This document shows, in pieces, positions 121 to 13,980 of a stretch of DNA of 64,000 bases. The notes under the pieces were generated by a model, which saw only the letters and a program-made list of their open reading frames with translations, was not told the DNA's origin and did no database searches. A program made the translations under genes and the position numbers. Source of the stretch: Gammaproteobacteria bacterium (GTDB taxonomy: Bacteria; Pseudomonadota; Gammaproteobacteria; Ga0077536); assembly GCA_038116745.1 (NCBI GenBank), contig JAYODW010000008.1, positions 25,094 through 89,093 of the forward strand, written 5' to 3'. How positions within the stretch are numbered: position 1 is the stretch's first letter; every line of letters begins with the position of its first letter.

Positions 121-1161
121 TCAGCCGAGGCGGGTCTGCAGCAGCTTCTGCGCTTTACCCATGAGCAGCGGAAAGCTCTCGCCAAACACTTCCCAGGCAT
201 CGTTCGGCCGCCGGCCGCTGCGGTGCTCTTCAAAGTAGTACGCAGTGATACAGGCCAGGCGATAACCGGCCAGCGCGCGGTACCAGCCGAGGTCATCGAG
301 ATGCCACGCGCTGCGTTCAGCGTAGCGCGCGATCAGCTGCTCAGGCTGCGGCTGCCAGCCCATGCTGCCCCGGCGCATCGGGCCCCAGCAATCGCGGTCG
401 TAGATCATGCAGGCCCAGCCCACGTCGAGCAGACTCGGCCCGATGGATGCACCCTCCCAGTCGACCACACCGCTGAAGCGCGCGCCGTCGAACACCCAGT
501 TGTTGGAGTAGTAGTCGCCATGCACCAGGCCACGCGGCACATCGGCAGGCATAGTGTCGTGCAGGAGATCGCGCACGGCGTAGCCCAGCCCCAGCCATAC
601 CGGGTCGGTGGCGCGACGCAGGATATTGGCCCAGTGCTCGATTTCCGCGACCGGCTCCCGCACCGCGTTCCAGCCGGCCAGAGACCCATCCACATCGATG
701 GCATGAATGTCGACCAGCACGTCCATCGCACGTTCAAAACGATTGCCGGCATCCTCAAAGCCGCGTTCAGCTGCGGCCTGAAAAAGATCCGGCGGCGACG
801 CGCCGGGCAGACGCGACATCATGAGATACGGCGCGCCGAACGCGCGCTCGTCGTCTGACCAGAAGCGCGCCCGCGGTGCCGGGATCCCGCTCTGCTCCAG
901 CGCCTGCAGCAACGGTACCTGGCGCAGCACGTCAAAATTATTTTTACGCGCCACCCCGGGAGGCGGAATTTTCAGGACCAGGCGCTCGACCAGCCGGCTA
1001 CCGTCGAGCACATCAAAACCGATCGTGACGCCAGAGTGTCCACCGAGCGGCGCAATCGCCAGCGCACTCGACGCAGCACCGTAGGTATCGCGGGTCCAGG
1101 CGCTGATCTGCGCTTTCAGCGCGTCCGAATGCGCCAGCGCCTGCGCTGAATTGGCGTTCAT
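121..1161 (-). CDS. APH/phosphotransferase family protein (ACAD10/11-N or LvaA-like kinase)
   Basis: Gly-rich LGGHSG, LVLK, catalytic HGDYYSNN and VVDWE motifs. Last gene of the minus-strand operon. Confidence 0.85.
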   Translation of the reverse strand: MNANSAQALAHSDALKAQISAWTRDTYGAASSALAIAPLGGHSGVTIGFDVLDGSRLVERLVLKIPPPGVARKNNFDVLRQVPLLQALEQSGIPAPRARFWSDDERAFGAPYLMMSRLPGASPPDLFQAAAERGFEDAGNRFERAMDVLVDIHAIDVDGSLAGWNAVREPVAEIEHWANILRRATDPVWLGLGYAVRDLLHDTMPADVPRGLVHGDYYSNNWVFDGARFSGVVDWEGASIGPSLLDVGWACMIYDRDCWGPMRRGSMGWQPQPEQLIARYAERSAWHLDDLGWYRALAGYRLACITAYYFEEHRSGRRPNDAWEVFGESFPLLMGKAQKLLQTRLG

Positions 1162-1188
1162 CAGTGCGTTGCTGCTGCGGGCGCGGGG

Positions 1189-2652
1189 TCAGCGCGAAAG
1201 GATCAGCTCACCGTCCGGACGGCGCACGTGCACATGGCGCGGCCGTTTCAGGGTCATCAGATGATCCAGCAGCGCGTCCAGGCTCATGTCGTCCTGGTAG
1301 TCATAGGTGCGCTTGACCGGGCCCGCAGCGTGCGCCGCCGCCAGATCTTCAGCGGGCACCAGATAGCGCAGGATGAGCTCCTCGTCGCTGACTTTGCGTC
1401 CGCCGTACTGCTGACGCACCTCTTCGAGATCGGGCTGCGGGCGCTCCCAGTTGAGAAAGCGCTTGCCCTGCTCGGAGGCAAAGACGCGGTCTTTGACAGC
1501 CTGGCTGATCGGTGCCGGCGGCGCCCCATAATGCTCGCCCAGATACAGCACAACCTCGTCGGGGACGGTGCTCCAGCGCTCTCCCGTCACCACGTTCAGC
1601 ACCGACTGAATGCCGATCAGCTGCGAGAACGGCGTCGCCGAGATCGGGTGCCCCAACTCCTCACGCACGCGGACCGTCTCCTCCAACACCTCGTGCAGGC
1701 GATCTTCCATCCCGTACTGCGCGAGCTGGGCTTTCAGCGTGCCGGTCATGCCGCCCGGCAGGTGATGCCGGTAGGCGAACGCGCTGTATTCGTTAGGCAC
1801 GCCGGTGGCCCAGCCTTCCTGCCGCGCGATGCGCGCGCAGTGGTCAGAGATCTCGGGCAGCACTGCGGTGTCGATGCCGTGGGTATGGCCCAGCCAGTGG
1901 ATGTTTTCCAGCGTCTGCTCGGTCGACGGCAGCGAGGGGCCGTTAGCCAGCGAGCGCGCACAGGTGTGCAGGCACTGCGCACCGGCCTCAATCGCGATCA
2001 CGTAGTTGAGCGCGCCCATGCCGGTGGTGTTGTGAAAGTGAAACTCGATGGGCTTGTCGCCAGCCGCGGTGATCAGCGCCGGCACGAGGGTACGCGCGCG
2101 CTCCGGCGACAGGATCCCCGGCGCATCTTCGACATAGATCGCGCTGATGCTCGGCCAGCTCGCCATCTCTGCCACCCGCGCCGCGAACCACTCGTCGGTG
2201 TGCACCGGCGAGATGCCGTACATGATCGCCCCCATCGCGCGCGCGCCGGTCGCGGCGATGGTCTCCGAAAGCCGGCGCATGTCGGGCATGTTGTACAGAC
2301 AGTCGTAGATCCAGAAAGCGTCAATGCCGTGTCTGACCAGGGTCTGCACATAAAGATCCATGATCACGTTTGGCGTCATGCCGAAGGTGCCTATGCGGTT
2401 CTGACAGACTGGCGCGCGGAGCTCGCTGGTCGGCATCCACTGACGCCAGAGGTCCAGGCTCTCCCAGGGATCTTCCTGCGAGTAGCGCACGCTGCACTCC
2501 ATCAGCGAACTGCCGGTTACCTCGATCGCGCGGAAGCCGGCGCCATCCATCTGGCGCGCCACGCGCTCGAGCATGCCGCCGCGCAGGCGCATGCCCCACA
2601 GGCTCTGCTGGCCGTCGCGAAAGGTCTGCTCGACGATATCGATGTGCGCCAT
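1189..2652 (-). CDS. Biotin-dependent carboxylase, carboxyltransferase subunit (pyruvate carboxylase B/OadA-like, no biotinyl domain), paralog 2
   Basis: EQTFRDGQQSLW, HFHNTTG metal motif, HHLPGGM and ISATPFSQ motifs. No MK biotinylation domain. Confidence 0.88.
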   Translation of the reverse strand: MAHIDIVEQTFRDGQQSLWGMRLRGGMLERVARQMDGAGFRAIEVTGSSLMECSVRYSQEDPWESLDLWRQWMPTSELRAPVCQNRIGTFGMTPNVIMDLYVQTLVRHGIDAFWIYDCLYNMPDMRRLSETIAATGARAMGAIMYGISPVHTDEWFAARVAEMASWPSISAIYVEDAPGILSPERARTLVPALITAAGDKPIEFHFHNTTGMGALNYVIAIEAGAQCLHTCARSLANGPSLPSTEQTLENIHWLGHTHGIDTAVLPEISDHCARIARQEGWATGVPNEYSAFAYRHHLPGGMTGTLKAQLAQYGMEDRLHEVLEETVRVREELGHPISATPFSQLIGIQSVLNVVTGERWSTVPDEVVLYLGEHYGAPPAPISQAVKDRVFASEQGKRFLNWERPQPDLEEVRQQYGGRKVSDEELILRYLVPAEDLAAAHAAGPVKRTYDYQDDMSLDALLDHLMTLKRPRHVHVRRPDGELILSR

Positions 2653-2654
2653 GA

Positions 2655-3560
2655 TCAGGAGGCCTGCGGTGCCGGGTAGCTGTTCTTCGGGTCCGGCTTA
2701 CCCTCACGCGGCGCCTGCGAGTAGTCACCGAACAGACCATCGCGCTGCGCCACCGCTGCGGGTACGCCAGCACGCTCCGCAAGCTCGATGAAATCATCTG
2801 CCTCAGGCGTGTTGCGCATCAGGCCATCGAGCACCGAGCCGAGCAGTTGGGTGGACTTAAGACCCATGTTCTCGTACGCCTGGTTGACCACCAGCTTCAT
2901 GCAGGCGAGCTGAGAAAGGGGAATGGACGCGAGCTCGTCGGCCAGTTTGTAGGCCTCACCCTCAAGCTCCGCGAACGGGACGGCCTTGTTGACCAGACCG
3001 CATTCGACAGCCTCAGTCCCGGACAGCGGGCGTCCGGTCAGCGCGAGTTCCTTGGCCTTGGCCAGGCCTAGGCGGTGCACCCACATGCCGGCGTGATGGC
3101 AGCCCCACATGCGCGAATAAGGTGTGCCGATACGGGCGTCTTCGCTCATCAGCACGATGTCCGCGCACAGCGCCATTTCGCTGCCGCCGCCGAGCGCCCA
3201 GCCGTGCACCATGGCGATAACGGGCTTGGGGCTGTGCCACAGGCTCATGAACTTCGGCACCCAGCCGGTCACCGGCGAGCAGGTCATGACGAAATCCTTG
3301 CCCGCATCCCATTTACCCTGGGTCGTCAGACCGTCATCCCACTGGTGGAACCCACCGCTGAAGTTGAAGCCTGCGCAGAAGGAGCGACCGGCACCGCGCA
3401 GCACGATGACCTTGACCGCATGGTCACGCACCGCTTCGCCGACCGCTGCCTCCAGCTCATCTGTCATCGGCGGCACGATGGTGTTGAGGTCTTCGGGGCG
3501 GTTGAGCGTGATGGTCGCAATCGCGCCGGCGGTGGAATAAACCAGGGTTTCGTAAGCCAT
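2655..3560 (-). CDS. Crotonase/enoyl-CoA hydratase family protein
   Basis: ITLNRPE, FCAGFNF, KPVIAMVHGWALGGG motifs. Confidence 0.9.
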   Translation of the reverse strand: MAYETLVYSTAGAIATITLNRPEDLNTIVPPMTDELEAAVGEAVRDHAVKVIVLRGAGRSFCAGFNFSGGFHQWDDGLTTQGKWDAGKDFVMTCSPVTGWVPKFMSLWHSPKPVIAMVHGWALGGGSEMALCADIVLMSEDARIGTPYSRMWGCHHAGMWVHRLGLAKAKELALTGRPLSGTEAVECGLVNKAVPFAELEGEAYKLADELASIPLSQLACMKLVVNQAYENMGLKSTQLLGSVLDGLMRNTPEADDFIELAERAGVPAAVAQRDGLFGDYSQAPREGKPDPKNSYPAPQAS

Positions 3561-3578
3561 ATCGTCGTTCTCCGTCTT

Positions 3579-5771
3579 TCAGGGCTCGCGCACGCGCCCC
3601 AGCAGCCGCAGCAGGTCCTCGTGCATCTCGAACCACACCGTGTGGTAACTCGGCACGCGCACGCCGCTCATGAAATCAAGGTCGCCATCCAGAACGCGGT
3701 CGTAGGCTGCTTCCAGGAGCTCTCCATAAACCCCGAGACGCGTCTCAAAGCTGGCGAAGCCGGCCAGGATGGGCGCTGCGCGATCGTGCAGCGCACCAAG
3801 CTCGTCCACGATCCGCGCATCGTAATCCGCGTCGCTGTGGTCATTCGGCACCGAGCTGCCGCCGACATCCATGGTCTGCCAGCGGGTCATCAGTACCAGC
3901 AGCTGGCGGTTTACGACTTCGAAACGGTCATATGCAGCGCCAAAATCCTCAGTCGCACGATGCGCGGCATAAAGCGCGGGATACAGCCGCTCGAGAGCGT
4001 CGCGCCCCGCCGGCGTGACCACGAACCGCCCGGCTGACGCGACCGCCAGCCCCATGGCCTCAATGCGGACCATCGCAGCTGCGGCCGCCGTCCCGTCCAG
4101 TCGGAGCAGGGCTGCCACCTCCTCCAGCGTCGCCGACTTTTTCACCGCCAGGCCGTGCAGCACGAGAAAATCCGGATCGTCACTCGTCTGCGCCTGCAGT
4201 TCAGGCTGCTCGGAAGCCGCGCGGATCGCATCGATGTCGGCACGGGTGACACTCGACCCCCGGCCCTCGAGATTCCGCGAGCCGCGCTGGTCGAGCCGGT
4301 ACAGCGCATCTGCCAGGGGGCTCCCGGCATTGCTACGCACCCAGGCATCATCGAGAAAACGATAAGGCGCCTGACAGACACTGGGCACAAACTCAGCCGC
4401 AGCCGCGTTGTAGTCGGCAAGACTCAGCCTGCCGCGTGTCGTGAGATAGGTGCCGCGCTTGGGTTCCAGCGACGTCGAGCCAGGGCGCAGCGGGCCGGAG
4501 CTCAGCGTGTAGTGCTCATCCTGCAGCACGCTGTAGGGCACCGGGCTCCACATGTCCCCCGGGGCATCGGCCCATTTGCTCATGCTGTAAGCGGATCCCT
4601 GCTGCGACGGCAGACTGATGTAGCCCAGGAGCTCAGCCAGAAAATCCCGCGCGTACTCGTCATTCAGCAGCGGCTTGATGCGCTGCGCGCGGGGATCGAG
4701 CGTGAACCAGTCGTCGGGCTCGTACAGTCCGGCAACGTGGAACAGATCCTTGGCCACCGCGGCGTAAATCATCGCGCCGGCATCGATCATCTGATCGCGC
4801 GTCCACCCCGCCATGCGCTTCCATAGCTCACGTGTGGCCTCACTCAGAATCGCGCCCTCATGGTCGAGGAACTCAGCCAGGGTCGCAGCGTTGTCCATGG
4901 CCACAGGGATCTCCCCGTCACTGAGGAAATCTGAGGTATACAGGCCGACCGCCACGACATTGTCGTGCTCGAAAGCGGGCGTGGCCTCGAAGCTCGCCCA
5001 GTCGTCAACGATGTTGAAGTGCGTGTCTTTGACGATGGTCGGGATGGTCAGGTTGTTGTGCGTGACGCGTCCGGCGATACCGTCCAGCCACGGCAGGTCG
5101 CACTCGCCCATGTCGACAAAGCCCCGCACCAGCATCTCTTCGTGAGGCCGGCAGCGATACGGCCCGTGATTCCAGATCCCCAGGCGCGACTCACAGTGCG
5201 ACAGCAGCGCGAATTGATTGGCGGTCGACATGAATTTTTTCAACGCGGTGTGCAGCCGATCGCCCGGTCGCATAGCGATCGCGTCGGCCTCGAACACCTG
5301 CAGGCGGCGCTCCGGCAGGATCTGGGCGCGCAGATTGCTGTCGGATGGCAGCACGTGGGCGTGGTTACGGTGATAGGCAAGATTTACCCGCTCGGCGAAG
5401 TCCTCGACGAAAACCAGATCATCGAGCGCATCGGTCGGCCGCAGCAGTCCGAACTCGATCAGTGTCTGGCGTCCGGCCAGATAAAACTCCGGTACGCAGG
5501 AGAGACTGATGATGTCGCCCTTGGTCGAGGTCTCCCGCAGGCGGTCCCCGATCTCTTCCGGGCTCATGCGCGCCGCCAGACGGCGCAGCAGTTCGGGATA
5601 GCGGTAGAAGGCCTGCAGGTAGGACACCACCATGTAAGCCGGCACCGGGAAGAGCTTCGACTCCTGCACCGTGCGCGTACTGCAGTGGAAAAACCAGGTG
5701 TCCGCGTTCTTGCGTATCCAGGCGTTCAGCCGGAGCAGATCGGTGTAACCGTGACCGTGCGTAGCCCTCAT
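3579..5771 (-). CDS. Unknown ~510-aa domain fused to a C-terminal wHTH + Rv1126c-like domain
   Basis: 730-aa ORF overlapping the upstream gene by ATGA. The C-terminus (VLHGLAVKK...NDHSDADYD...LH...SYHTVWFEMHEDLL) resembles the small proteins encoded next to truncated actinobacterial ppdK. Confidence 0.75.
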   Translation of the reverse strand: MRATHGHGYTDLLRLNAWIRKNADTWFFHCSTRTVQESKLFPVPAYMVVSYLQAFYRYPELLRRLAARMSPEEIGDRLRETSTKGDIISLSCVPEFYLAGRQTLIEFGLLRPTDALDDLVFVEDFAERVNLAYHRNHAHVLPSDSNLRAQILPERRLQVFEADAIAMRPGDRLHTALKKFMSTANQFALLSHCESRLGIWNHGPYRCRPHEEMLVRGFVDMGECDLPWLDGIAGRVTHNNLTIPTIVKDTHFNIVDDWASFEATPAFEHDNVVAVGLYTSDFLSDGEIPVAMDNAATLAEFLDHEGAILSEATRELWKRMAGWTRDQMIDAGAMIYAAVAKDLFHVAGLYEPDDWFTLDPRAQRIKPLLNDEYARDFLAELLGYISLPSQQGSAYSMSKWADAPGDMWSPVPYSVLQDEHYTLSSGPLRPGSTSLEPKRGTYLTTRGRLSLADYNAAAAEFVPSVCQAPYRFLDDAWVRSNAGSPLADALYRLDQRGSRNLEGRGSSVTRADIDAIRAASEQPELQAQTSDDPDFLVLHGLAVKKSATLEEVAALLRLDGTAAAAAMVRIEAMGLAVASAGRFVVTPAGRDALERLYPALYAAHRATEDFGAAYDRFEVVNRQLLVLMTRWQTMDVGGSSVPNDHSDADYDARIVDELGALHDRAAPILAGFASFETRLGVYGELLEAAYDRVLDGDLDFMSGVRVPSYHTVWFEMHEDLLRLLGRVREP

Positions 5772-6472
5772 GGCAGCTTCCAGACCCGCGCTCGCCCGAG
5801 GCCATCAGCGTCTTCGTAGGGTGGTTTAGCCGCAACGCTGTACTCAACCTGCACGCTATCGCCGTCGGCGATCCCCGCAACCTCGGCCGCCATCAGGCAG
5901 GGGATCTGATACTCGCGCGTCAGGATTCCGAGATGCGACCGCACCGAGCCACCGCGACAGACCACGGCGGTGAAGCCCTCCAGGATCGGTGCGGTCAGCG
6001 TTCCGCCTGAATCGTCAATGATGGCCACAGTGCCTGGCGGCACCCCGTTGGTCAGGTAGTCCATCACTTTCTCCACGCTGCTGATGAGGCGCGCGGTGCC
6101 GATGATGTCCTCCCGGCAATGAAACACGTTGTCGCCCTGTCCCGCGAGCAGGCGTCCTTCAGCATCCGCCGGCAGGTCATCCGAGAGCGCTGCAGTGGCA
6201 CGCACCGCGTACTTGTGCGGCGCCTCGGCGACAGAGATCCCGGCCGACATCTCGAATCGTTCGCCTGTCGCCAGAAATTCATCCTCGAGACCCTGAAAGT
6301 CCGCGGCGGACAATTCGAGTGCGGCCTCGAAGACCATCTCTTCCCAGGTTCTGCCGCTTTCCGCCAGACGCGCCGCCGCGATCTCCCGGATGCGACGGTG
6401 ATAGAACGCCACCGTGCGGAACTGCGGCGGTGCACCCCATTTATTCAGCGTCCCAGGATCTATCTCAGACAT
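5768..6472 (-). CDS. Stand-alone PEP-utilising enzyme mobile (phospho-histidine swivel) domain protein
   Basis: GGTLTAPIL...AVVCRGGSVRSHLGILTREYQIPCLM matches the GGxxSHxxIxxRExGIP motif, with the His conserved. No ATP-grasp domain and no PEP-binding barrel. Confidence 0.85.
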   Translation of the reverse strand: MSEIDPGTLNKWGAPPQFRTVAFYHRRIREIAAARLAESGRTWEEMVFEAALELSAADFQGLEDEFLATGERFEMSAGISVAEAPHKYAVRATAALSDDLPADAEGRLLAGQGDNVFHCREDIIGTARLISSVEKVMDYLTNGVPPGTVAIIDDSGGTLTAPILEGFTAVVCRGGSVRSHLGILTREYQIPCLMAAEVAGIADGDSVQVEYSVAAKPPYEDADGLGRARVWKLP

Positions 6473-6499
6473 ACGTCGTATTCCTTGTCCGCCCGGATT

Positions 6500-7879
6500 T
6501 CAGGCTACCTGGCGCGCGTTCCACTGCGGCAGGAAAGAGTCTTCGAGCCAGCGCGTATTGATGCGATCGGCACGGAAATCGCCGTGCCCGATCAGGTCGC
6601 GCAGCACGCCCGCCGTGGTCTCGATGCCCTCGATGCGCACCTGACCAAGCGCGCGATAGAGTCGATCTGCAGCCAGCTCCCGGGTCTCGCCCCAGCAGAT
6701 CAGTTTGGCCACCATGGAGTCGTAGTGGGCGCCGACGACGTAACCATCGTGGCAATGTGTATCGATCCGGACCCCCTCGCCCTGCGGCATGGTCCAGTGC
6801 CGGATCGTGCCGGGTGACGGAAGAAAACCCGCCTGTGCCTGCTCAGCGTTAAGGCGACACTCTATGGCGTGTCCCCGCAGGCTGACCTGCGCCTGGTTCA
6901 GGCTCAGCGGTTTACCAGCGGCGATGCGCAGCTGCTCCCGCACGATATCCACCCCCGTGACCATCTCGGTGACCGGGTGTTCGACCTGCACCCGCGTATT
7001 GACCTCCAGGAAGCAGAAGGTCTCGCGGTCGAGATCAACCAGGAACTCCATCGTGCCCGCGCTGCGATAATTGAGGGCGCGCGCCAGCGCGACTGCCGCC
7101 CCGCAGATGGCTTCACGCAAATGCGTCGGCACGGCACGCGCGGGCGCTTCCTCGACGAGCTTCTGGTAGCGCCGCTGGCAGGAGCAGTCGCGCTCGCCAA
7201 GGTGAATCACCTCCCCGTGCGCGTCAGCCACGATCTGAACCTCGACGTGTCGTGCATTCGTGACGTAGCGCTCCAGAAACAGCGTGCCATCGCCGAATGC
7301 GGCCGCCGCCTCGGTCGAGGCGCGGAGGAAGGCATCTCTCATCTCGTCCTCAGAATGCACCTGCACCATGCCGCGCCCGCCGCCCCCCGCCGTCGCCTTG
7401 AGCAGCACGGGATAGCCGACCTGCCCGGCAATCCTGCGGGCCTCATCCACTGACTCGATAGCATCCGACCCGTCGCCTACTGGGATCCCCAGCTCGCGCG
7501 CCGCCTGGCGCGCGGCGACTTTGTCGCCACCGCGGCGGATCACATCCGCCGGCGGCCCGACGAAAACGAGCCCGTGCTGTACGCAGGCCGCGGCCAGTTC
7601 GGGTCTTTCGGAGAGAAACCCGTACCCCGGATGCACGGCGTCACAGCGCGTCGCGATAGCGGCGCCAACGATGGCTGCGACATTGAGATAGCTCTGGTTT
7701 GCCGCCGCCGGCCCGATCTCGACCACCCGTTCGGCTAATCTGGTGACCATGCTCCCCCGATCAGCCTCCGAGACCACCGCAACGCACTCAAGGCCCTCAT
7801 CAAAACAGGCGCGCGCGATGCGCACCGCAATCTCGCCGCGATTGGCAATCAATACCCGACGCAGGGGCCCGCGCGTCAT
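6500..7879 (-). CDS. accC: Biotin carboxylase subunit
   Basis: LIANRGEIAVRI, HPGYGFLSE, KATAGGGGRGM, ERDCSCQRRYQKLVEEAP, EVNTRVQVEHPVTE, YDSMVAKL motifs. Confidence 0.95.
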   Translation of the reverse strand: MTRGPLRRVLIANRGEIAVRIARACFDEGLECVAVVSEADRGSMVTRLAERVVEIGPAAANQSYLNVAAIVGAAIATRCDAVHPGYGFLSERPELAAACVQHGLVFVGPPADVIRRGGDKVAARQAARELGIPVGDGSDAIESVDEARRIAGQVGYPVLLKATAGGGGRGMVQVHSEDEMRDAFLRASTEAAAAFGDGTLFLERYVTNARHVEVQIVADAHGEVIHLGERDCSCQRRYQKLVEEAPARAVPTHLREAICGAAVALARALNYRSAGTMEFLVDLDRETFCFLEVNTRVQVEHPVTEMVTGVDIVREQLRIAAGKPLSLNQAQVSLRGHAIECRLNAEQAQAGFLPSPGTIRHWTMPQGEGVRIDTHCHDGYVVGAHYDSMVAKLICWGETRELAADRLYRALGQVRIEGIETTAGVLRDLIGHGDFRADRINTRWLEDSFLPQWNARQVA

Positions 7880-8367
7880 GCCTCGGCGCTGTCCGGATCG
7901 ATGACCACAAGAGTCTGCGCGCGCGCGACCTGCTCACTGTTCGCGACGCAGATTGCGACCACTGTCCCGCTTACCCCGGCTACCACCCGGTTCATAAGCT
8001 TCATGACCTCGACGATGCACACTACCGACTCCGCCTCGACATGCTGGCCGACCTCGACGAAGGGCGGCGCGCCGGGCGCGGGAGAACGCCAGAAAATACC
8101 GGGAGACGGCGAGCACACCGGCGTGCCTGCGGGAATTTCAGCCACCTGCATCGGGGTCTGCGCTGGCGCCGGCGCGGCGGACGGGGTGTCCGGCGCTGCG
8201 ACTGCTGTGGCTGCCGCCGGCCGCGCCTGCGGCGTCGCCACGGGCAATGTCCCGCCTTCATCACTGGCGCTGATATAGACCTCGACCCCATCAATCGACA
8301 GACGGATCTCGTTCCAGTCGGACTGCTCGAAGGCGTCGAGCAGACGGCGGATATCTGACGGTTCCAT
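7876..8367 (-). CDS. accB: Biotin carboxyl carrier protein
   Basis: Ala/Pro-rich linker, SPSPGIFWRSPAPG and the biotinylation motif EVMKLMN. ATGA overlap with the biotin carboxylase gene. Confidence 0.93.
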   Translation of the reverse strand: MEPSDIRRLLDAFEQSDWNEIRLSIDGVEVYISASDEGGTLPVATPQARPAAATAVAAPDTPSAAPAPAQTPMQVAEIPAGTPVCSPSPGIFWRSPAPGAPPFVEVGQHVEAESVVCIVEVMKLMNRVVAGVSGTVVAICVANSEQVARAQTLVVIDPDSAEA

Positions 8368-8369
8368 CG

Positions 8370-9485
8370 TTATTCAAACCCGTAGCGGGGATAAGGGCCA
8401 TTCATGGTGTGTTCGAAATGCGCCATCCCCTCGGCGCCGTTGGCTTCCACCATGATCATTGGAAATTCAGTCGGGCCGAGACGGTGTTTTTCCGGCACAT
8501 GCGGCGGGCCTCCCGCACCGGGGCCCGGTTCAGCGGGATAGCTGTCGTGCTCCACCACCTCCGGTCCACGATACACGCCCGCGGACAGTCCGTCGGACCA
8601 GCCCCGGTAGTAACCACCACCCTGAACATCGGCCGGCGTGCCCTGAAGCTCCAGGGTATAGCGCCGGGTAACGCCGTCCTCACCGTCGAGCTCAATTCGC
8701 CCGCCACGCGGCCAGCGCGAGCCTGCGATGTAGTCCAGCTCGTGGCGCACAGCTGTCAGCCTGACCGAACGCCCGTCGATGTAGTCGAGCCTTCCTTCGA
8801 AATCGATTGTGCGACCGTCCGGGGTTTCATGGGTGTTGTAGAACCCACAGTGATCCGCCACCTGAAACGGCACCCACATGCGCAGGGCACGCCGCTCCGG
8901 CTCTTCGTCCTGCCGGTCGATGCCCTTGATCCCGGTCGGCACCGCCATCGATGAGCGCACGCCCCAGGAGTGGTCCCGCATTGCGTGCCAACCGTCGATG
9001 GCAAAGGATTCGCCATGCACCCGGGCTTCCCCGGTAGCCCGGCAGATCTGGGTGTAGCGGATGAGGTCATTGACCACTGCACCGAATTTGAAATGCTGAT
9101 AGCGATCTTCGATCACCGGCGGCGCCTGCGCTTCCAGGATCACGTTAAATTCGACCGCGGCCGGGTTGTCCCCGGCGATGAGCCGCAGGCGCTTCATTGG
9201 CTCGACGATTTCATAGCGGATCGGACCGACGTCGAGCTCGCCATAGCGCGGGTGCAGTGCACGTGAGGCGCGCAGCGAGGTCTGCCGGTGGGCGTGTGCG
9301 ACCGTGGCCCAGCCGTCAATGACGTTGACATTCGGATGCAGCCGGAGGCCAGTGCAGAAATACCACTCCGGCGCGTAGAACGCGCAGAAATAGCCGTCGT
9401 TGTAGTGCGCGTCCGTGGTGGCTGCAGTCGCGAAAGGGGTCGGGGACTGATGGAAGGGAAAATCGTCGAAAGGACTCAAACGCAT
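8370..9485 (-). CDS. Conserved hypothetical beta-rich protein (possibly AttH/tocopherol-cyclase-like fold)
   Basis: 371-aa ORF inside the operon with an N-terminal DDFPFHQ and an internal RDHSWGVR motif. The fold call is inference. Confidence 0.65.
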   Translation of the reverse strand: MRLSPFDDFPFHQSPTPFATAATTDAHYNDGYFCAFYAPEWYFCTGLRLHPNVNVIDGWATVAHAHRQTSLRASRALHPRYGELDVGPIRYEIVEPMKRLRLIAGDNPAAVEFNVILEAQAPPVIEDRYQHFKFGAVVNDLIRYTQICRATGEARVHGESFAIDGWHAMRDHSWGVRSSMAVPTGIKGIDRQDEEPERRALRMWVPFQVADHCGFYNTHETPDGRTIDFEGRLDYIDGRSVRLTAVRHELDYIAGSRWPRGGRIELDGEDGVTRRYTLELQGTPADVQGGGYYRGWSDGLSAGVYRGPEVVEHDSYPAEPGPGAGGPPHVPEKHRLGPTEFPMIMVEANGAEGMAHFEHTMNGPYPRYGFE

Positions 9486-9503
9486 GTTCGCGCTCCGCTG
9501 GCT

Positions 9504-10994
9504 TCAGGCGCTGGCCTGAACGCCGCTGTCGTTACGCTTGAGCACGAGATCGCCCGTCGCACCTGAAACGATCACCTGGCGGGGACGCTTCAGGGGCAGC
9601 AGGTGATTCAGCAGATCGTTCATACCCATGCGATCGTGGAAATCATAGGTCCGCTTGACCGGTCCGGCAGCACGGGTGGCCGCCAGATCTTCGGCCGGCG
9701 CCAGATAGCGCAACAGCAGTTCTTCATCACTCAGATGCCTGCCGCCATACTGCTCACGAACCTCCTTGAGGCTGGGCTGAGGACGGGTCCAGTCCGCAAA
9801 GCGTTTGCCGTGCGCAGAGTTCAGTACCTTGTCCCGCACCGTCTCGCTGATCGGCGCCGGCGGCGTCCCGTAGTGACCGGCAAGATAAAGCACGCTCTCG
9901 TCCGGCACGGTACCCCAGCGCTCGCCCGTGACAACGTTCAGCACCGACTGAATGCCGATGATCTGCGAGAACGGTGTCGCGGAGATGGGGTGCCCCATCT
10001 CTTCTCGCACCCGCACTGTCTCCTCCAGCACCTCGGGCAGCTTGTCCTGCATGCCGTACTGCGCGAGCTGCGCCTTCAGCGTGCCGGTCATGCCCCCCGG
10101 CAGGTGATGGCGATAGGCAAACGCGCTGTACTCATTGGGCGTCCCGGTCAGCCATTGCTCCTGAGCGGCAATGCGTTCGCAGTGCTCCGCAATCGCCGGC
10201 AGTACAGCGGTGTCAATGCGGTGCGTGTGGCCGAGCCAGTGGATGTTTTCGAGCGTCTGCTCCGTGGACGGCAGGGACGGCCCGTTGGCCAGGGGCCGCG
10301 AGCAGGTGTGCAGGATCGTCGCCCCGGCCTCGAGCGCGATCACGTAGTTCAGCGCACCCATGCCGGTCGTGTTGTGAAAGTGAAACTCGATCGGCAGATC
10401 GCCTGCTGCATCAAGCAGGGCTGGCACCAGGCTACGCGCGCGATCCGGCGTCAGGATCCCGGGAGCATCCTCGATATAGAACCCGGACACACACCCCCAG
10501 GCAGCCATTTCGCGCACACGGGCTGCGAACCACTCGTCGGTATGCACCGGTGAGATGCCGTACATGATCGCGCCCAGCGCCTGTGCGCCGGTGTCGTGTA
10601 TGACCTGACACAGGCGCTGCATCTGGTCGAGGTTATAGAGACAGTCATAGACCCAGAAGCTGTTCAGGCCATGGCGCACCAGAGTCTGCACCCACAGATC
10701 GAGCAGCACATTCGGCGTCATCCCGAAGGTGCCAATGCGATTGCTGCCGACGCCGCAGCGGAACGGGACGTCCGGCATCCACTGACGCCACAGGTCCAGA
10801 CCTTCCCAGGGGTCTTCCTTGGAGTAGCGCACAGTGCACTCGAACATTGAGCTGCCGGTGATGTCGACCGCACGATAGCCGGCGCGATTCACCAGCGGCG
10901 CCACTGCTTCGAGCATGCCGGTGCGGATCCGCATACCCCAAAGGCTCTGCTGGCCGTCGCGAAAAGTCTGGTCGACGATCTCGATCTGTGCCAT
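9504..10994 (-). CDS. Biotin-dependent carboxylase, carboxyltransferase subunit, paralog 1
   Basis: Same motifs as 1189-2652. ATG at 10994 with an AGGAG RBS upstream, and its N-terminus aligns with the paralog. Confidence 0.88.
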   Translation of the reverse strand: MAQIEIVDQTFRDGQQSLWGMRIRTGMLEAVAPLVNRAGYRAVDITGSSMFECTVRYSKEDPWEGLDLWRQWMPDVPFRCGVGSNRIGTFGMTPNVLLDLWVQTLVRHGLNSFWVYDCLYNLDQMQRLCQVIHDTGAQALGAIMYGISPVHTDEWFAARVREMAAWGCVSGFYIEDAPGILTPDRARSLVPALLDAAGDLPIEFHFHNTTGMGALNYVIALEAGATILHTCSRPLANGPSLPSTEQTLENIHWLGHTHRIDTAVLPAIAEHCERIAAQEQWLTGTPNEYSAFAYRHHLPGGMTGTLKAQLAQYGMQDKLPEVLEETVRVREEMGHPISATPFSQIIGIQSVLNVVTGERWGTVPDESVLYLAGHYGTPPAPISETVRDKVLNSAHGKRFADWTRPQPSLKEVREQYGGRHLSDEELLLRYLAPAEDLAATRAAGPVKRTYDFHDRMGMNDLLNHLLPLKRPRQVIVSGATGDLVLKRNDSGVQASA

Positions 10995-11070
10995 CGCGAT
11001 GCTCCTGTGCTGAATCACCGCCCGCCTCGGCGGGACCAGCAGGGTTTTTCAGTCGGGACGGTCGCCGGAC

Positions 11071-11868
11071 TCAGCGGGTTCCGCCGCGCCGCGTGCGTTC
11101 CGGCTGACGCGGGGGCTCGGGACGCGCGCCCTTGGCGAAGCGATCCATACCGGCCATGGCCTGCGGCGCGACAGAGGGTGCATGACACAGCTCGACTTCC
11201 AGCTCGAGTCCGGCTTCGAGCGACATTCCAACCGTCGCCAACGCCGCCTTACGGTCGGCCCGGATCCCGTCCTGCGGATACCCGGCGATGTGCTGCGCCA
11301 ACGCCAGGGCGCGGTCTACCGCGGTGCCCGCATCCACCACTTCCTGTGCCAGCCCCATGGCCAGCGCGCGATCGGCTTCGATCTCCATGCCGGTCTCGAT
11401 CATGTACAGCGCATTGCCGTAACCAAGCAGGCGCGGCAGGCGCTGAGTGCCGCCGTCGGCAAGCGGTAAACCCCAGCGCTTGTTCAACAGGCCCATACGC
11501 GCGTTCTCGTCCACGATGCGGATGTCGCACCACACGGCTAGCTCCACACCACCAGCCCAGCAGTTGCCGTTGATAGCCGCGATCGTGGGTTTGCCCGGGT
11601 CGAGCTTGCAGAAACCCATAGGCCCGGCGTCCTGCGTGTGCCGATGCTCGAACAGCTCTCGCATCCCTTTCAGATTAGCTCCGGCGCAAAAAGTGACACC
11701 GCCGGCACCGGCGATTACCAGCACCGACTGCGCGACATCATTGCCGAAATCGGTAATGGCGTCGGCCAGCAGGCAGGCCAGTTCGTCGTCAACATTGTTG
11801 TGAACTTCGGGCCGGTTCAGAGTCAGCAGGGTCACAGCGCCCTGCTTTTCGATCAACAGCTTGGACAT
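11071..11868 (-). CDS. Crotonase/enoyl-CoA hydratase family protein
   Basis: LTLNRPE, FCAGANL, KPTIAAING, PLADGGTQRLPRLLG. Start moved to ATG 11868 (AGGA upstream). Confidence 0.9.
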   Translation of the reverse strand: MSKLLIEKQGAVTLLTLNRPEVHNNVDDELACLLADAITDFGNDVAQSVLVIAGAGGVTFCAGANLKGMRELFEHRHTQDAGPMGFCKLDPGKPTIAAINGNCWAGGVELAVWCDIRIVDENARMGLLNKRWGLPLADGGTQRLPRLLGYGNALYMIETGMEIEADRALAMGLAQEVVDAGTAVDRALALAQHIAGYPQDGIRADRKAALATVGMSLEAGLELEVELCHAPSVAPQAMAGMDRFAKGARPEPPRQPERTRRGGTR

Positions 11869-12035: not shown

Positions 12036-12219
12036 AGACAGCGCCGCCGGCACCCGATCCTGAGACGGCCCTGGGCGCATGGTCCGGCCACTCCACCCGG
12101 GTAAACGAGCGCGGTCTGATTGCCACCCTCCTCCCCCGCGATGCGCTAATCTCGCGGGCCTGAACAGACCCCCGACGCGCCGGATAAGCCGCAGCGTCAG
12201 CCAACGGAGAATCACATCC

Positions 12220-12906
12220 ATGTCTACCGTATTGATCACCGGCGCCAATCGCGGCATCGGGCTGGAACTTGTCAAAGCTTACGCTGCGCGCGGCGATGAA
12301 GTGCTCGCCTGCTGCCGTAGCCCTGACGCCGCCACCGAACTGGCAGCGGTCGCAGGCGCCGTGACCTTGCTCGAAGTGCAGGTCAGCGAACAGGCCTCCG
12401 TTGCCAGGCTGGCCGAAACGCTTGCCGGACGCGCAGTTGATACCTTAATTAATAACGCCGGCACCCTCGGTCCAGCCTACGAGGATCAATCGCTGCTGAA
12501 AATGGATTTCGATGGCTGGAACGAAGCTTTTGCCGTCAATACCCTGGCCCCGGTCCGCGTCATGCAGGCGCTGCTGCCTAACCTGCGCGCCAGCAGCAAC
12601 CCCAGGCTGGTCAACATCACATCCCAGATGGGCGCTATCTCCCTGGACATGACCGTCGCCTACGCCTACTGCTGTACGAAAGCCGCTCTCAACAAGTTCA
12701 TGAAGCTTGCTGCCGTCGAACTCGGCGCCGAGGGCATCAATGTATGCCTGATCCATCCGGGCTGGGTGCGCACCGACATGGGCGGACCGGGCGCAGATAT
12801 TTCGCCGGAAGAAAGCGCAGCCGGGATCGTGCGGACGGTCGAAAAACTCAACGCTGAGACCAACGGCAGCTTCTGGAAATGGAATGGTGAGACCCACGAC
12901 TGGTGA
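12220..12906 (+). CDS. SDR family oxidoreductase (CsgA/C-factor-like)
   Basis: TGANRGIG, NNAG, YCCTK (YxxxK) and HPGWVRTDMGG motifs. GGAGA RBS before ATG 12220. Confidence 0.92.
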   Translation: MSTVLITGANRGIGLELVKAYAARGDEVLACCRSPDAATELAAVAGAVTLLEVQVSEQASVARLAETLAGRAVDTLINNAGTLGPAYEDQSLLKMDFDGWNEAFAVNTLAPVRVMQALLPNLRASSNPRLVNITSQMGAISLDMTVAYAYCCTKAALNKFMKLAAVELGAEGINVCLIHPGWVRTDMGGPGADISPEESAAGIVRTVEKLNAETNGSFWKWNGETHDW

Positions 12907-12942: not shown

Positions 12943-13980
12943 TTACAGCGCCGAGACGATCTCAGCCAGGACGTCGCGGTCCTCCCCGGACACTACCGGG
13001 ATGCTGACCTCCACCCGGTCGATCAGGTCGCCGTAGCGTTCGCGCAGACTGGCCGCCAGCTCTTCATAGCGGGCAACGACGACCCATTCGTGCAGCACCT
13101 CGTCGTCAACCAGCGCTGCCATCTCAGACCAGCGCTGAGCTTTGGACAGACGACTCATTTCAGCCGCCAGGTCGCCCAGTCCGACCCGCTCGAAAGGCGC
13201 GCGATAAGCTGGCGTGCTGACATAAAAAGCGAGGCGTTGGCGGGCGAATTCAACCCGGGAAGCCAGAGTCGCCTCGTCTGCAGCGGTTGCAATGAGGGGT
13301 TTCAGACAGACCTCAAAAATTTGCCTGTCGGCGCGCTTTGCCGCGATCGCCGGATGAACAACATCACGGATGTAACGCGCTGAGCACACCGGATGCAGCC
13401 GCACACCGTCTGCCACCTCCGCCGCGACCCCGCACATGTACGGATTAACAGCCGCCATCAGGATCGGGATCTGCGGACACTCGATAGGTGCGGGCGTAAA
13501 CAGCGGTACGGAAAGGTTGAGTTTGAAGTAGCGGCTCTCAAACTCGAGCTTTTTCCCGGCCTGCCAGCTCTGCCAGATGGCGCGCACCGCATTAATGTAG
13601 TCACGCATCCACGGGCCCGGCGGATGCCATTCCATACCGAAACGACGCTGCACGTGTCCACGCACCTGGGTGCCAAGACCAAGCTCAAAACGACCGTGTG
13701 AGATCTTCTGCAGGGTCCAGGCGGACATCGCCGTCACGTAAGGACTCCGCGCGAATGCGATCGCAACGGACGTCCCCAGGTGGACCCGGCGGCTATGGCA
13801 TGCCGCCAGCGCCAGCACCGGAAAAGGGTCGTCCTTGGTCTCCTCCATGAGCAGCCCGTGGTAGCCGAGGTCGTCAACCAGCGTCGCATCAGCGGGCACC
13901 TGATCGAGGTTCAGTGGCGCTTCGGGGACAGCCAGCCCCGGATCCAGCTTGCCGAGAGGTAACAGAGTTTCTGCTTTCAT
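12943..13980 (-). CDS. LLM-class (putative F420-dependent, TIGR03617-like) oxidoreductase
   Basis: EETKDDPF, GTSVAIAFARSP, GRFELGLGTQV and AFYVSTPAY motifs. Confidence 0.85.
   Translation of the reverse strand: MKAETLLPLGKLDPGLAVPEAPLNLDQVPADATLVDDLGYHGLLMEETKDDPFPVLALAACHSRRVHLGTSVAIAFARSPYVTAMSAWTLQKISHGRFELGLGTQVRGHVQRRFGMEWHPPGPWMRDYINAVRAIWQSWQAGKKLEFESRYFKLNLSVPLFTPAPIECPQIPILMAAVNPYMCGVAAEVADGVRLHPVCSARYIRDVVHPAIAAKRADRQIFEVCLKPLIATAADEATLASRVEFARQRLAFYVSTPAYRAPFERVGLGDLAAEMSRLSKAQRWSEMAALVDDEVLHEWVVVARYEELAASLRERYGDLIDRVEVSIPVVSGEDRDVLAEIVSAL

Follow-up and report, generated by a model that had tools for sequence, protein, structure and literature searches.

A ten-gene carboxylase operon in a coastal gammaproteobacterium, variant of a widespread cluster, with a possible role in phosphorylation-dependent ketone carboxylation

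Gene content and organisation of the operon

The analysed window, a 64,000-nucleotide stretch of DNA from a coastal gammaproteobacterium, contains ten open reading frames at 121-11868, all on the minus strand, whose families were assigned with Pfam and NCBIfam. From the ECH1 end, and with a divergent neighbour given last, these are:

11071..11868, minus strand: ECH1, crotonase/enoyl-CoA hydratase family, reading frame open to 11895
9504..11018, minus strand: CT1, PycB/OadA-fold carboxyltransferase (PF02436 and PF00682)
8370..9485, minus strand: 25-phosphosteroid lyase homologue, 371 aa, Rv3169 family, DUF7065/7064 superfamily
7876..8367, minus strand: BCCP, biotin carboxyl carrier protein (TIGR00531)
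6500..7879, minus strand: BC, biotin carboxylase, ATP-grasp (PF02786, PF00289, PF02785)
5768..6472, minus strand: SWV, 234 aa, PEP-utiliser mobile (swivel) domain (PF00391)
3579..5771, minus strand: U730, 730 aa, without Pfam or NCBIfam match
2655..3560, minus strand: ECH2, crotonase family, PRK12478 type (PF00378)
1189..2652, minus strand: CT2, second carboxyltransferase, CT1 paralogue
121..1161, minus strand: APH-family small-molecule kinase (PF01636, E 2.9e-29)
12079..12906, plus strand: SDR, divergent short-chain dehydrogenase (PF00106, E 1.2e-37)

An earlier note on this DNA had described ten co-oriented, tightly spaced genes in this order, and the open reading frames and family assignments agree with it. 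The intergenic distances from ECH1 to the APH kinase gene are 52, 18 and 2 bp, a 4-bp overlap, 27 bp, a 4-bp overlap, 18, 2 and 27 bp, the first becoming 76 bp if the ninth CT1 codon, where CT1 alignments begin, is the start; the likely start of ECH1 is the ATG at 11868, with aggaa just before it. The ten-gene unit is bounded by a convergent gene terminating near base 95, beyond the APH end, and by the divergent SDR gene, a mere candidate for an accessory alcohol-to-ketone step; an SDR family is present in 33 of 77 related loci. Pfam and NCBIfam annotation of the operon revealed neither a PPDK_N subunit nor a HAD phosphatase, CoA ligase, thiolase or hydrolase.

The stretch was found contiguous in three coastal metagenome runs. 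The same ten genes in identical order occur in the genome of locus L004, and a nearly identical order occurs at loci L080 and L006. As to ketone context, a BVMO-like gene lies within the window, and in L004 an AraC regulator gene and two genes of BVMO-like type lie next to the orthologous operon.

Among the other carboxylase and CoA-ester genes, BCCP carries the biotinyl-Lys context EVMKLM and scores 117.5 bits against TIGR00531 (cut-off 115.2), and BC scores 602 bits against NF006367 (cut-off 597). ECH1 (PF00378, E 3.3e-40) is nearest in NCBIfam to PRK08259, at 252 bits and below the cut-off of 273, and its top PDB relatives are mycobacterial EchA5-type hydratases of putative function. ECH2 scores 468 bits against NF009125 (cut-off 347; PF00378, E 7.2e-41), with the mycobacterial hydratase 3njb, also of putative function, as its top PDB relative.

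A widespread cluster in relatives

The window operon is not a one-off: it belongs to a widespread, so far unnamed cluster, of which it is a less common form. The earlier idea of a related but distinct activation-carboxylation route stands. The neighbours of the SWV/U730 pair in most relatives are a PPDK-type ATP-grasp/His protein along with BCCP, BC, CT, CoA ligase and thiolase; like the Hpe (Rhodococcus rhodochrous GD02) and Acv (Sphingobium sp. SYK-6) clusters, those of the relatives continue with a CoA ligase and a C-C cleavage enzyme. Across the retrieved stretches of 59 loci encoding the N-terminal part of U730 (U730N), many of them on fragmentary contigs, CT was present at 43, PPDK_N at 38, AMP-ligase at 38, BCCP at 36, BC at 35, thiolase at 22 and Y_phosphatase3 at 11, while SWV lies directly upstream of U730N at all 59, consistent with the earlier expectation that these genes co-occur in other genomes. 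Two Rhodococcus plasmids hold an annotated canonical cluster, and this cluster is common in freshwater Nanopelagicales genomes, where no aromatic ring-cleavage neighbours were evident in the retrieved stretches. In the present genome, but outside the operon, Hydantoinase_B genes lie near two SWV/U730 loci.

The PPDK_N protein combines an HpeI-like ATP-grasp part (24-25% identity) with an HpeH-like swivel domain (37% identity) that carries GGSTSHAAVVSR, and in 46 of 46 cases its gene has the gene for the C-terminal part of U730 directly upstream. The lack of an ATP-grasp subunit, as noted earlier, holds for the operon, but contig C11 bears the genome's one copy of this 600-aa PPDK_N type, beside a second BCCP-BC-CT set and a thiolase. 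In L009, an actinobacterial version of the window-type operon, the PPDK_N gene lies inside the operon. Three of the four other genomes with an operon lacking the ATP-grasp gene have an orthologue, one as a fragment only, and none was found in the fourth (G003), which may be incomplete.

Carboxyltransferases

CT1 and CT2 are paralogues with 74% identity, and the tree shows their duplication to be common to L004. CT1 has no fused BCCP domain, and its motifs RDGQQS, IEDAPG and HFHN mark an altered active site that CT2 shares. The His of RDxHQS is replaced by Gln and the carbamylated Lys by Glu, IEDAPG or VEDAPG standing at the Lys position of PC, OadA and the AcvE-like CT, which retains the Lys. 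In the commoner cluster type the CT has Lys-to-Tyr and His-to-Asn changes, so that the metal-site Lys is Tyr there and Glu here; the altered residues of both types could mean a chemistry different from plain carboxyl transfer.

In a CT tree of 47 rows, all 40 of the U730-adjacent CTs, CT1 and CT2 included, fall in one clade (support 100/99), of which three Hpe/Acv/MarK-type CTs (100/100) are the sister group (joint node 100/96); both OadA and the classical CT that this genome encodes on C72 lie outside. The Hpe/MarK-type reference clusters were recognised by plasmid gene order against the descriptions in the available text of PMC9618137 and PMC12624787. The operon does not correspond gene for gene to hpe/acv, as its CTs are sister to and not inside the Hpe/Acv/MarK type and it lacks PPDK_N, HAD phosphatase, CoA ligase and hydrolase genes.

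The SWV-U730 pair

The phospho-His swivel domain of SWV (PF00391, E 7.1e-6) is its C-terminal half, with His180 as the phospho-His in GGSVRSHLGILTRE; this motif does not vary among the aligned homologues (18 of 18) and can be made out in each of the 35 listed. Of the two large proteins that the earlier note had called unknown, U730 has no Pfam, NCBIfam or PDB sequence match. Its AF2 model has a pLDDT of 90 (87 for the N-part, residues 1-520), and no solved structure matched the predicted fold of this conserved, enzyme-like N-part (Foldseek best E 0.44; VIA-wide best Z 2.3), which is therefore putatively new. Among 29 sequences across phyla, 83 of its columns, rich in Arg, Asp and Glu, are invariant. 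The C-part (about 523-730) is predicted as a winged helix plus helical bundle, matching MarR-type winged helices with Z about 12 and an rmsd of 1.4-1.9 A over 71-76 residues, and in most relatives the two parts are encoded by separate genes.

A complex of SWV with U730N was predicted with an ipSAE of 0.82, a value that 58 of 80 solved complexes attained, as did 2 of 110 mismatched pairs, against 0.00 for the best of three controls; runs shared at least 84% of contacts, and partner pLDDT was at least 80. Residues 174-180 of SWV and the invariant U730N stretches 32-44, 178-196 and 361-383 belong to the modelled interface, the phospho-His loop being predicted to sit on an invariant U730 face. From gene linkage and this predicted interface, U730N is proposed to be a substrate-binding phosphotransfer domain. 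No fused SWV-U730 or U730-PPDK_N proteins were found, an observation of little weight.

Phenylphosphate synthase, PEP synthase and PPDK likewise combine an ATP-grasp domain, a mobile phospho-His domain (GGxxSH) and a separate substrate domain. The same architecture is found in rifampicin phosphotransferase, also a His-swivel kinase. In contrast to these kinases, the present system divides two His domains between two proteins and has no ATP-grasp partner gene in the window operon, and neither the sequence nor the predicted fold of U730N shows a relation to the PEP/pyruvate TIM barrel.

The lyase homologue and the APH kinase

The gene between CT1 and BCCP, previously listed as an unknown beta protein, encodes a member of the 'Rv3169 family' (NF053593, 253.5 bits, cut-off 150) that matches the solved 25-phosphosteroid lyase (PDB 9fzn/9g4c, E 1.9e-29) over residues 2-313 of 371. 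The second of the supposed large unknowns is thus a lyase homologue, and the APH kinase is its likely partner: an APH gene accompanies it in 7 of 8 loci. The kinase has the motifs HGDYYSNN and DWE, and among its PDB relatives are Rv3168 (3ats) and the kinase domain of ACAD11. By analogy, the two most likely form an ATP-dependent dehydration pair, the APH kinase most likely serving the lyase homologue rather than priming carboxylation. The kinase/lyase logic, from alcohol through phosphate ester to alkene, is described in the available text of PMC8449060 and PMC11061730.

Sterolibacterium denitrificans has a comparable pairing of a phosphotransferase-family kinase with a lyase (25-hydroxysteroid kinase and 25-phosphosteroid lyase), whose genes are not neighbours according to the available text of PMC8449060, whereas here the pair shares one operon and is embedded among carboxylase genes. 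The annotated neighbours include no DMSO-reductase-type C25 hydroxylase, and a steroid substrate is not indicated. The lyase homologue might instead act on a phosphate installed by SWV/U730. On C18, a DUF7065/7064 protein likewise adjoins a third SWV/U730N-like pair, a distant one.

Proposed pathway

We consider it about an even chance that the operon encodes phosphorylation-dependent ketone carboxylation joined to kinase/lyase dehydration and CoA-ester steps. Like this operon, Hpe, Acv and the MarK variant (Novosphingobium aromaticivorans) have separate BCCP, BC and PycB-fold CT, with a PEP-utiliser kinase (phospho-His swivel) in the same cluster. By their logic a ketone would be phosphorylated and then carboxylated beside the carbonyl by a three-part biotin enzyme. 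The kinase part would here be SWV bound to U730, with the ATP-grasp and second His domain fused in one further protein, where Hpe and Acv have HpeH+HpeI and AcvA+AcvB, or MarK takes their place. Because the operon lacks an ATP-grasp partner as well as genes for CoA ligase, thiolase and phosphatase, the model leans on other loci: acting in trans, the C11 protein would take the phosphate from ATP and dock on the winged-helix C-part of U730, and via SWV His180 the phosphate would reach a substrate bound in the N-part. This two-His relay is a conjecture, two phospho-His domains in one system being without precedent in Hpe/Acv. BC would load CO2 onto biotinyl-BCCP, and CT1 and CT2 would transfer it to the carbon adjacent to the carbonyl, so that a beta-keto acid forms. 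Removal of the phosphate, for which most relatives have a phosphatase along with a CoA ligase and a thiolase, would fall here to the APH kinase and lyase homologue; the two crotonases would act on CoA esters. Relative to Hpe/Acv, the window operon is distinguished by two CTs, two crotonases, an APH kinase and a phospho-lyase homologue.

Acetone and acetophenone carboxylases, of the hydantoinase A/B family, convert a ketone to a beta-keto acid at the expense of ATP, with CoA activation and thiolysis following. The net outcome proposed here would be the same, although those enzymes belong to unrelated, biotin-independent families. The earlier suggestion of a ketone, aromatic or heterocyclic substrate is kept as regards the ketone, while nothing points to an aromatic or heterocyclic compound in particular; we would guess at a hydroxy-ketone of aliphatic or alicyclic, possibly isoprenoid-like, structure and not at a phenol.

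Alternative readings

The nearest sister position of the Hpe/Acv/MarK-type CTs could also mean a true pathway of that type for phenolic aryl methyl ketones such as acetovanillone or 4-hydroxyacetophenone, with SWV/U730 as an interchangeable phenol kinase like MarK; kinase swaps are known (AcvAB/HpeHI versus MarK, in the available text of PMC12624787), a phosphatase is often in canonical clusters (the 11 of 59 loci above), and the R. pyridinivorans cluster has a 4-hydroxyphenylacetate-hydroxylase-like gene in its vicinity. This is nevertheless unlikely, given CTs outside that clade with the metal-site Lys replaced, an operon without a HAD phosphatase, acetoacetate-CoA-ligase-type or amidohydrolase/BKACE gene, and Nanopelagicales clusters whose retrieved stretches show no evident aromatic ring-cleavage neighbours. 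Further, an elimination lyase cannot remove a phenol phosphate, yet the operon encodes a lyase homologue.

Its winged-helix C-part could mean that U730 has a regulatory role, in which SWV/U730 would be a regulatory or activating device of the carboxylase, for example a phospho-His switch with the winged helix as its output, and the carboxylase would use an unphosphorylated CoA ester or keto acid. The absence of a recognisable catalytic fold in the N-part and the CoA esters implied by two crotonases fit such a role, which we judge quite unlikely: the invariant N-part columns are of the kind that active sites typically show, it is on these residues that the His loop of SWV is predicted to lie, and the clusters are already flanked by separate AraC, GntR and LuxR/HTH regulators. 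The winged-helix part is moreover a separate 200-aa gene adjoining the ATP-grasp gene in all 46 cases, which fits a docking subunit better than a repressor.

A chance union of a ketone carboxylase with an APH/lyase/crotonase set that breaks down hydroxyacyl-CoA or tertiary alcohols, with no common substrate, would agree with the scarcity of the lyase homologue (8) and APH (7) among the 59 U730 loci, and APH kinases have other partners elsewhere, such as the acyl-CoA dehydrogenase found with an APH gene 5 kb from the Rhodococcus cluster. It is distinctly improbable, because the genes are interleaved with 2-27 bp gaps or overlaps (the lyase gene between CT1 and BCCP, ECH2 between U730 and CT2) and this interleaved order is common to Gammaproteobacteria (L004, L080, L006) and Actinomycetota (L007-L009).

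That the CTs are ordinary anaplerotic parts of a two-subunit pyruvate/2-oxoglutarate carboxylase or oxaloacetate decarboxylase is scarcely credible: their best named NCBIfam and PDB matches are PycB, OadA and transcarboxylase 5S, but all PC/OadA-type NCBIfam models score far below cut-off (e.g. 307.7 vs 402), the operon has no membrane beta subunit, the carbamylated Lys and the RDxHQS His are replaced, and a classical CT is encoded separately, on C72, from which the tree sets the window CTs apart in a well-supported clade.

Operon structure and surroundings

The ORF listing of the window contained ten minus-strand ORFs between 121 and 11895, and together with the family matches it bore out the gene order of the earlier note: ECH1 (a crotonase), CT1 (a carboxyltransferase), a 371-aa protein, BCCP (biotin carrier), BC (biotin carboxylase), SWV (a 234-aa PEP-utiliser swivel protein), U730 (a 730-aa protein), ECH2 (a second crotonase), CT2 and APH (a small-molecule kinase). 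The close spacing reported there (gaps of 2-76 bp or overlaps) held: by ORF coordinates the genes are separated by 2-52 bp or overlap by 4 bp, as do the SWV gene and the U730 gene directly downstream of it, and 76 bp is the largest gap only if CT1 starts at its ninth codon, the point where homologues begin aligning. ECH1 most likely starts at the ATG at 11868, which has an aggaa box ahead of it. The nearest solved relatives of ECH1 and ECH2 are structural-genomics entries with no tested function. A scan for promoters and terminators, of little meaning at such G+C, returned nothing resembling a promoter and, within genes, 13 weak terminator candidates.

The window lies on contig C8; the assembly measures 4.5 Mb and is 96% complete (C-numbers denote contigs of this genome and L-numbers loci fetched from genomes or plasmids). 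A convergent gene ends near base 95, and the following lie beyond the other end of the operon:

12079 onward: SDR gene, divergent from the operon
12943-13980: luciferase-like monooxygenase
14038-16530: TonB-dependent receptor
20851-22188: Rieske oxygenase alpha subunit
23065-24741: BVMO-like flavin monooxygenase, a ketone-related neighbour
24775-25869: zinc alcohol dehydrogenase

The TonB-dependent receptor indicates that the organism is Gram-negative. These neighbours look like a catabolic neighbourhood with a putative link to the operon; no coherent pathway was found among the upstream neighbours on C8 and the rest of the window. At the closest ten-gene orthologue (L004:15922-20563) the APH gene is followed by an AraC-type regulator and two BVMO-like monooxygenase genes, and an AraC gene precedes the operon in L006; none was seen adjoining the operon copy in the window.

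The biotin-dependent carboxylase

BC and BCCP scored past their curated cut-offs, the biotinyl-lysine of BCCP standing in the context EVMKLM, and the family matches agree with the earlier reading that a three-part biotin carboxylase, with BCCP, BC and a PycB-fold CT encoded by separate genes, is present as in the acetovanillone/hydroxyacetophenone (Hpe/Acv) pathways. CT1 and CT2, which are 74% identical, had PycB, OadA and transcarboxylase 5S as closest matches, with all equivalog models far below their curated cut-offs (the best pyruvate carboxylase B/OadA family score, with PRK09282, was 307.7 bits where the cut-off is 402). In an alignment with solved chains of PC-beta, OadA and 5S, CT1 retained the HxH pair (HFH) and the Arg-Asp of RDxxQS, and had IEDAPG where those chains have IKDMA(G/S/A), with Lys changed to Glu and the next Met to Ala. 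CT2 has the same substitutions, the motif across both proteins being IEDAPG or VEDAPG. The Lys of the IKDMA motif is the carbamylated metal ligand in PC, 5S and OadA, and the genome's own classical CT on C72 has IKDMAG and HTH. Pyruvate carboxylase or oxaloacetate decarboxylase was rejected as the identity of the two CTs, given the sub-cut-off scores and the replacement of the carbamylated Lys by Glu.

Reference CTs were taken from plasmid clusters picked by gene order, rather than from GD02 or SYK-6: an Hpe-type, one-to-one set on a Rhizobium leguminosarum plasmid (swivel, PPDK_N, BCCP, BC, CT, HAD, acetoacetate-CoA ligase and amidohydrolase), and two sets with the alternative kinase MarK, on Pseudomonas putida and Sphingobium yanoikuyae plasmids. 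Their gene orders agree with the descriptions in the available parts of PMC9618137, bioRxiv 2022.04.28.489975 and PMC12624787. In a maximum-likelihood tree of 47 rows, all 40 CTs encoded near U730 genes, CT1 and CT2 included, formed one clade (support 100/99) that was sister to the three Hpe/Acv/MarK-type CTs (100/100; joint node 100/96), with OadA and the C72 CT falling outside both. The alignment and tree that had been proposed as a check thus place the CTs of the window outside the HpeB/AcvE clade and apart from OadA. The duplication into CT1 and CT2 is common to the window and L004, and the Glu-type CTs are basal within the U730-linked clade. A derived and commoner group of 30 rows (L015, L017, L049, C11 and 26 others) has Tyr for the Lys and Asn for the second His (LYDTAG, HSNN), motifs which suggest that the metal site may have been changed or lost. 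The AcvE-like CT of S. yanoikuyae, the sole reference CT from which motifs were extracted, retains the Lys.

SWV and U730 as a conserved pair

The phospho-acceptor His180 of SWV lies in GGSVRSHLGILTRE, the GGxxxSH motif of the PEP-utiliser swivel domain, and homologues carry GG(S/T)xRSHLGILTRE, in which all 18 aligned sequences have the His. The U730 sequence had no match in PDB, Pfam or NCBIfam, and the protein Atlas yielded sub-threshold rows only (0.84). Its many relatives have neither names nor Pfam domains; a profile search through 1.84 billion representatives returned 527 of them at E <= 1e-3, of which 110 reached E <= 1e-30. Many relatives of 360-400 aa in that search matched only positions 10-370 of the N-terminal part (U730N). 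No fusion proteins of 911-2600 aa related to U730N were found, an absence that counts as weak evidence.

A scan of species genomes gave 77 loci, hosted by Gammaproteobacteria, Alphaproteobacteria (Tsuneonella, Croceicoccus, Rhodobacteraceae), many Actinomycetota (including Pseudonocardia, Geodermatophilus, Nocardioides and freshwater Nanopelagicales) and others. At most of these loci U730 is split into two genes, for an N-part of ~520 aa and a C-part (U730C) of ~200 aa. By tblastn, the SWV gene was directly upstream of U730N in 59 of 59 loci, and the U730C gene directly upstream of a gene for a ~590-aa PPDK_N-plus-swivel protein in 46 of 46 cases. Among the 59 U730N loci, where many contigs are cut off at their ends, a CT was present in 43, the PPDK_N protein and an AMP-dependent ligase in 38 each, BCCP in 36, BC in 35, a thiolase in 22 and Y_phosphatase3 in 11. 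The co-occurrence of swivel protein, U730 and CT, for which the earlier note had suggested a neighbourhood search, therefore extends to other genomes.

The commonest gene order is SWV, U730N, AMP-ligase, U730C, PPDK_N/His, BCCP, BC, CT, thiolase and SDR; it stands annotated ('PEP-utilizing enzyme', 'hypothetical' and the like) on plasmids of Rhodococcus oxybenzonivorans and R. pyridinivorans, where an OB-fold/thiolase pair and a tyrosine-type phosphatase follow the cluster. On R. pyridinivorans plasmid pA a reduced set, encoding 148-aa PEP-utilizing, 398-aa hypothetical and 577-aa PEP-utilizing proteins, lies 2.4 kb upstream of the full cluster (L091:5902-9473). No description of the SWV/U730 cluster was found in the main texts of the literature searched.

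Predicted structure of U730 and its complex with SWV

AlphaFold2 modelled whole U730 with pLDDT 90 and the N-part alone with pLDDT 87 and pTM 0.88. The C-part was modelled as a MarR-like winged helix (Z about 12; rmsd 1.4-1.9 A across 71-76 residues) with a helical bundle after it, and these were the only matches in a VIA-wide search with the whole model. Foldseek against PDB gave no match at E <= 0.001 for whole U730 and a best E of 0.44 for the N-part alone, and in the VIA-wide search, which is independent of Foldseek, none of 48,161 chains reached Z >= 5 with the N-part (best 2.3). No solved structure was thus seen to share the modelled N-part fold, although the lack of a good match does not prove newness. 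An alignment of 29 N-part sequences drawn from several phyla has 83 columns without variation, many of which are occupied by Arg, Asp, Glu, Trp or Tyr.

A complex of SWV with U730N was predicted with an ipSAE of 0.82 (runs 0.77, 0.82 and 0.83; best of three controls 0.00); 58 of 80 solved complexes attained the mark used, as did 2 of 110 mismatched pairs. Contact agreement between runs was at least 84%, and partner pLDDT at least 80. The predicted interface joins SWV residues 153-165 and 174-189, His180 included, to U730N residues 32-44, 102-115, 178-196, 310-328 and 361-383, stretches that contain many of the invariant residues. The modelling supports binding of SWV to U730N.

The proposed ATP-grasp partner

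Family searches confirmed that the operon has no HpeHI-type ATP-grasp protein, HAD phosphatase or CoA ligase, as had been noted from the sequence. None of the ten proteins matched PPDK_N (PF01326) or UPF0261, the family of MarK, the small swivel protein being the sole component of this kinase type, and thiolase, hydrolase, VceAB and any other phosphatase were likewise absent from the ten genes. The PPDK_N protein of the canonical clusters consists of an HpeI-like ATP-grasp part (24-25% identity) and an HpeH-like swivel domain (37%) with the canonical GGSTSHAAVVSR motif. The genome has a single PPDK_N/His gene of this type, at C11:59064-60854, within a locus (C11:54468-60854) in which it is followed by BCCP, BC, a Tyr-type CT and a thiolase. 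A second locus, C22:7518-12310, holds Y_phosphatase3, a second SWV, U730N, U730C and an SDR, and a cluster-type ligase is encoded on C59. The canonical system of this genome is split over the two loci on C11 and C22, and a single in-frame stop codon separates U730N from U730C on C22.

In the window U730C is fused to U730N, and the canonical succession of U730C and PPDK_N/His is absent from the operon. In an actinobacterial operon of the window type (L009), U730N and the CTs still have the genes for the ligase, U730C and PPDK_N between them, so that the gammaproteobacterial operon looks like the product of a deletion that fused the N- and C-parts. We infer that the ATP-grasp protein of C11 would serve the U730 of the window via the C-part. 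Four other genomes have an ATP-grasp-less operon: two encode a PPDK_N orthologue at another locus (79% and 64% identity), a third has a fragment of one at a contig end, and none was found in the fourth.

The lyase homologue and the APH kinase

The 371-aa beta protein, which the earlier note had listed as unknown, proved to be a homologue of 25-phosphosteroid lyase (9fzn, 9g4c; E = 1.9e-29), aligning over nearly its whole length (residues 2-313 with 9fzn_A residues 4-317) and passing the NCBIfam 'Rv3169 family' model; no functional study of Rv3169 was seen in the literature searched. The APH protein belongs to PF01636 with its HGD...N and DWE catalytic motifs intact, and its PDB relatives include Rv3168 and the ACAD11 kinase domain. 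The lyase homologue occurs in 8 of the 77 loci, seven of which also have the APH gene, the eighth contig ending before the expected place. Since only this minority of clusters holds the homologue, lyase and APH form an accessory module.

The pair resembles the 25-hydroxysteroid kinase and 25-phosphosteroid lyase of Sterolibacterium denitrificans, the lyase homologue at near full length and the phosphotransferase-family kinase at family level. According to the available parts of PMC8449060 and PMC11061730, that kinase phosphorylates the tertiary C25 alcohol and the lyase eliminates the phosphate to give an alkene. Within this operon the phosphosteroid-lyase family thus occurs in a setting new for it.

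A third, distant SWV-like/U730N-like pair was observed at C18:48615-53634 (L097:4616-9635), in the order DUF7065/DUF7064 protein, HAD phosphatase, 151-aa swivel protein, 470-aa U730N-like protein (25% identity, E = 3e-17) and Rieske oxygenase, with no biotin carboxylase genes near the pair. The DUF7065/7064 protein is of the same superfamily as the lyase homologue of the window, and its position beside the pair is compatible with such lyases acting on phosphate installed by the SWV/U730 kinase itself. On R. oxybenzonivorans plasmid pRB98, 5 kb downstream of the canonical cluster, an APH-family phosphotransferase gene and one for an acyl-CoA dehydrogenase form a pair (L088:16513-18852), an ACAD10/11-like arrangement.

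Relation to Hpe/Acv and proposed pathway

The description of the system as related to Hpe/Acv and distinct from it is upheld, one-to-one correspondence failing on kinase type, CT clade, phosphatase and downstream genes. Hpe/Acv clusters contain the kinase HpeHI/AcvAB or MarK, whereas the operon has SWV only, with the PPDK_N/His protein on another contig; and they contain an HAD phosphatase (HpeD/AcvF) and either a CoA ligase and hydrolase (HpeEF) or VceAB, all of which the operon lacks. The locus belongs to a sister family of Hpe/Acv with a different kinase, its most novel parts being the SWV/U730 kinase component, with a predicted fold not found among solved structures, and the kinase/lyase pair in the place of the phosphatase.

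In the Hpe pathway the carboxylase HpeCBA accepts only the phosphorylated ketone, made by HpeHI (PMC9618137, available part). The protein families, their linkage, the active-site changes, the tree position and the predicted interface are the observed part of a five-step scheme of phosphorylation followed by carboxylation, built by analogy with HpeHI and HpeCBA, of which we infer every chemical step and to which we give roughly even chances. ATP would charge the ATP-grasp/His protein, which would dock on the U730 C-part and pass phosphate via His180 of SWV to substrate held in the N-part. BC, BCCP and CT1/CT2 would then add a carboxyl group to the carbon beside the carbonyl. The phosphate would be removed later, by a phosphatase in most clusters; in the window variant it might be eliminated by the lyase homologue, or APH and lyase might dehydrate the substrate at another of its alcohol groups. 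A ligase encoded elsewhere would then provide CoA activation, and breakdown would be completed by the two crotonases together with a thiolase.

As to the substrate, our guess is that an aliphatic, alicyclic or isoprenoid-like hydroxy-ketone is somewhat likelier than a phenolic ketone, because a lyase is present, ring-cleavage genes are absent from the stretches examined and there are BVMO neighbours. Carboxylation of isoprenoid methyl ketones by marine bacteria has been suggested; searches of the literature on trimethylpentadecan-2-one carboxylation, and on R. oxybenzonivorans, benzophenone-3 and carboxylase, returned nothing bearing on the SWV/U730 cluster. To our knowledge, a carboxylating enzyme for aliphatic or isoprenoid methyl ketones has never been identified, and phosphorylation-primed, biotin-dependent ketone carboxylation is so far known for lignin-derived hydroxyphenyl ketones only.

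A wider reading, held tentatively and rather doubtful, is that SWV, U730 and the ATP-grasp/His protein would constitute a new class of multi-protein His-relay kinase, with a substrate-domain fold unlike solved structures, feeding a new family of biotin-dependent ketone carboxylases. This would be a third bacterial route of ketone carboxylation, beside the acetone/acetophenone carboxylases and Hpe/Acv, with carriers among coastal Gammaproteobacteria, freshwater Nanopelagicales and soil actinomycetes, and perhaps serving aliphatic or isoprenoid methyl ketones, the window variant having an elimination lyase for the phosphatase.

Tests of the sister family could assign function to two conserved orphan proteins, one with a predicted fold that matched no solved structure, could add a second biological context for the recently solved phosphosteroid-lyase family, including M. 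tuberculosis Rv3169, and could show by what route certain ketones of coastal and fresh waters are mineralised. As the family occurs in cultured Rhodococcus, Pseudonocardia, Tsuneonella and Nocardioides and in abundant freshwater actinobacteria, it is directly testable.

Two Hydantoinase_B/oxoprolinase-family stretches, at C22:1528-5420 (L098) and C8:17968-19782 (L100), lie a few kb from two SWV/U730 loci of this genome; the family includes acetone and acetophenone carboxylases.

Distribution and habitat

Of 24 further genomes sampled from the window's family, 20 had U730 homologues and only two had the fused, window-type orthologue (at least 74% identity). No U730 homologue was found in 16 genomes representing 16 other families in the class. 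One salt-marsh RNA library yielded four short contigs, each with 1-8 mismatches, on CT2, U730, BC and the lyase gene, a hint of expression from contigs that carry neither strand nor level and could be DNA carry-over; gaps in this cover say nothing about expression. Runs with near-identical DNA bear the labels estuary, salt marsh, lagoon, seawater and marine biofilm and come from 12 studies, the possible source among them, and three of these runs span the whole 12.2 kb.
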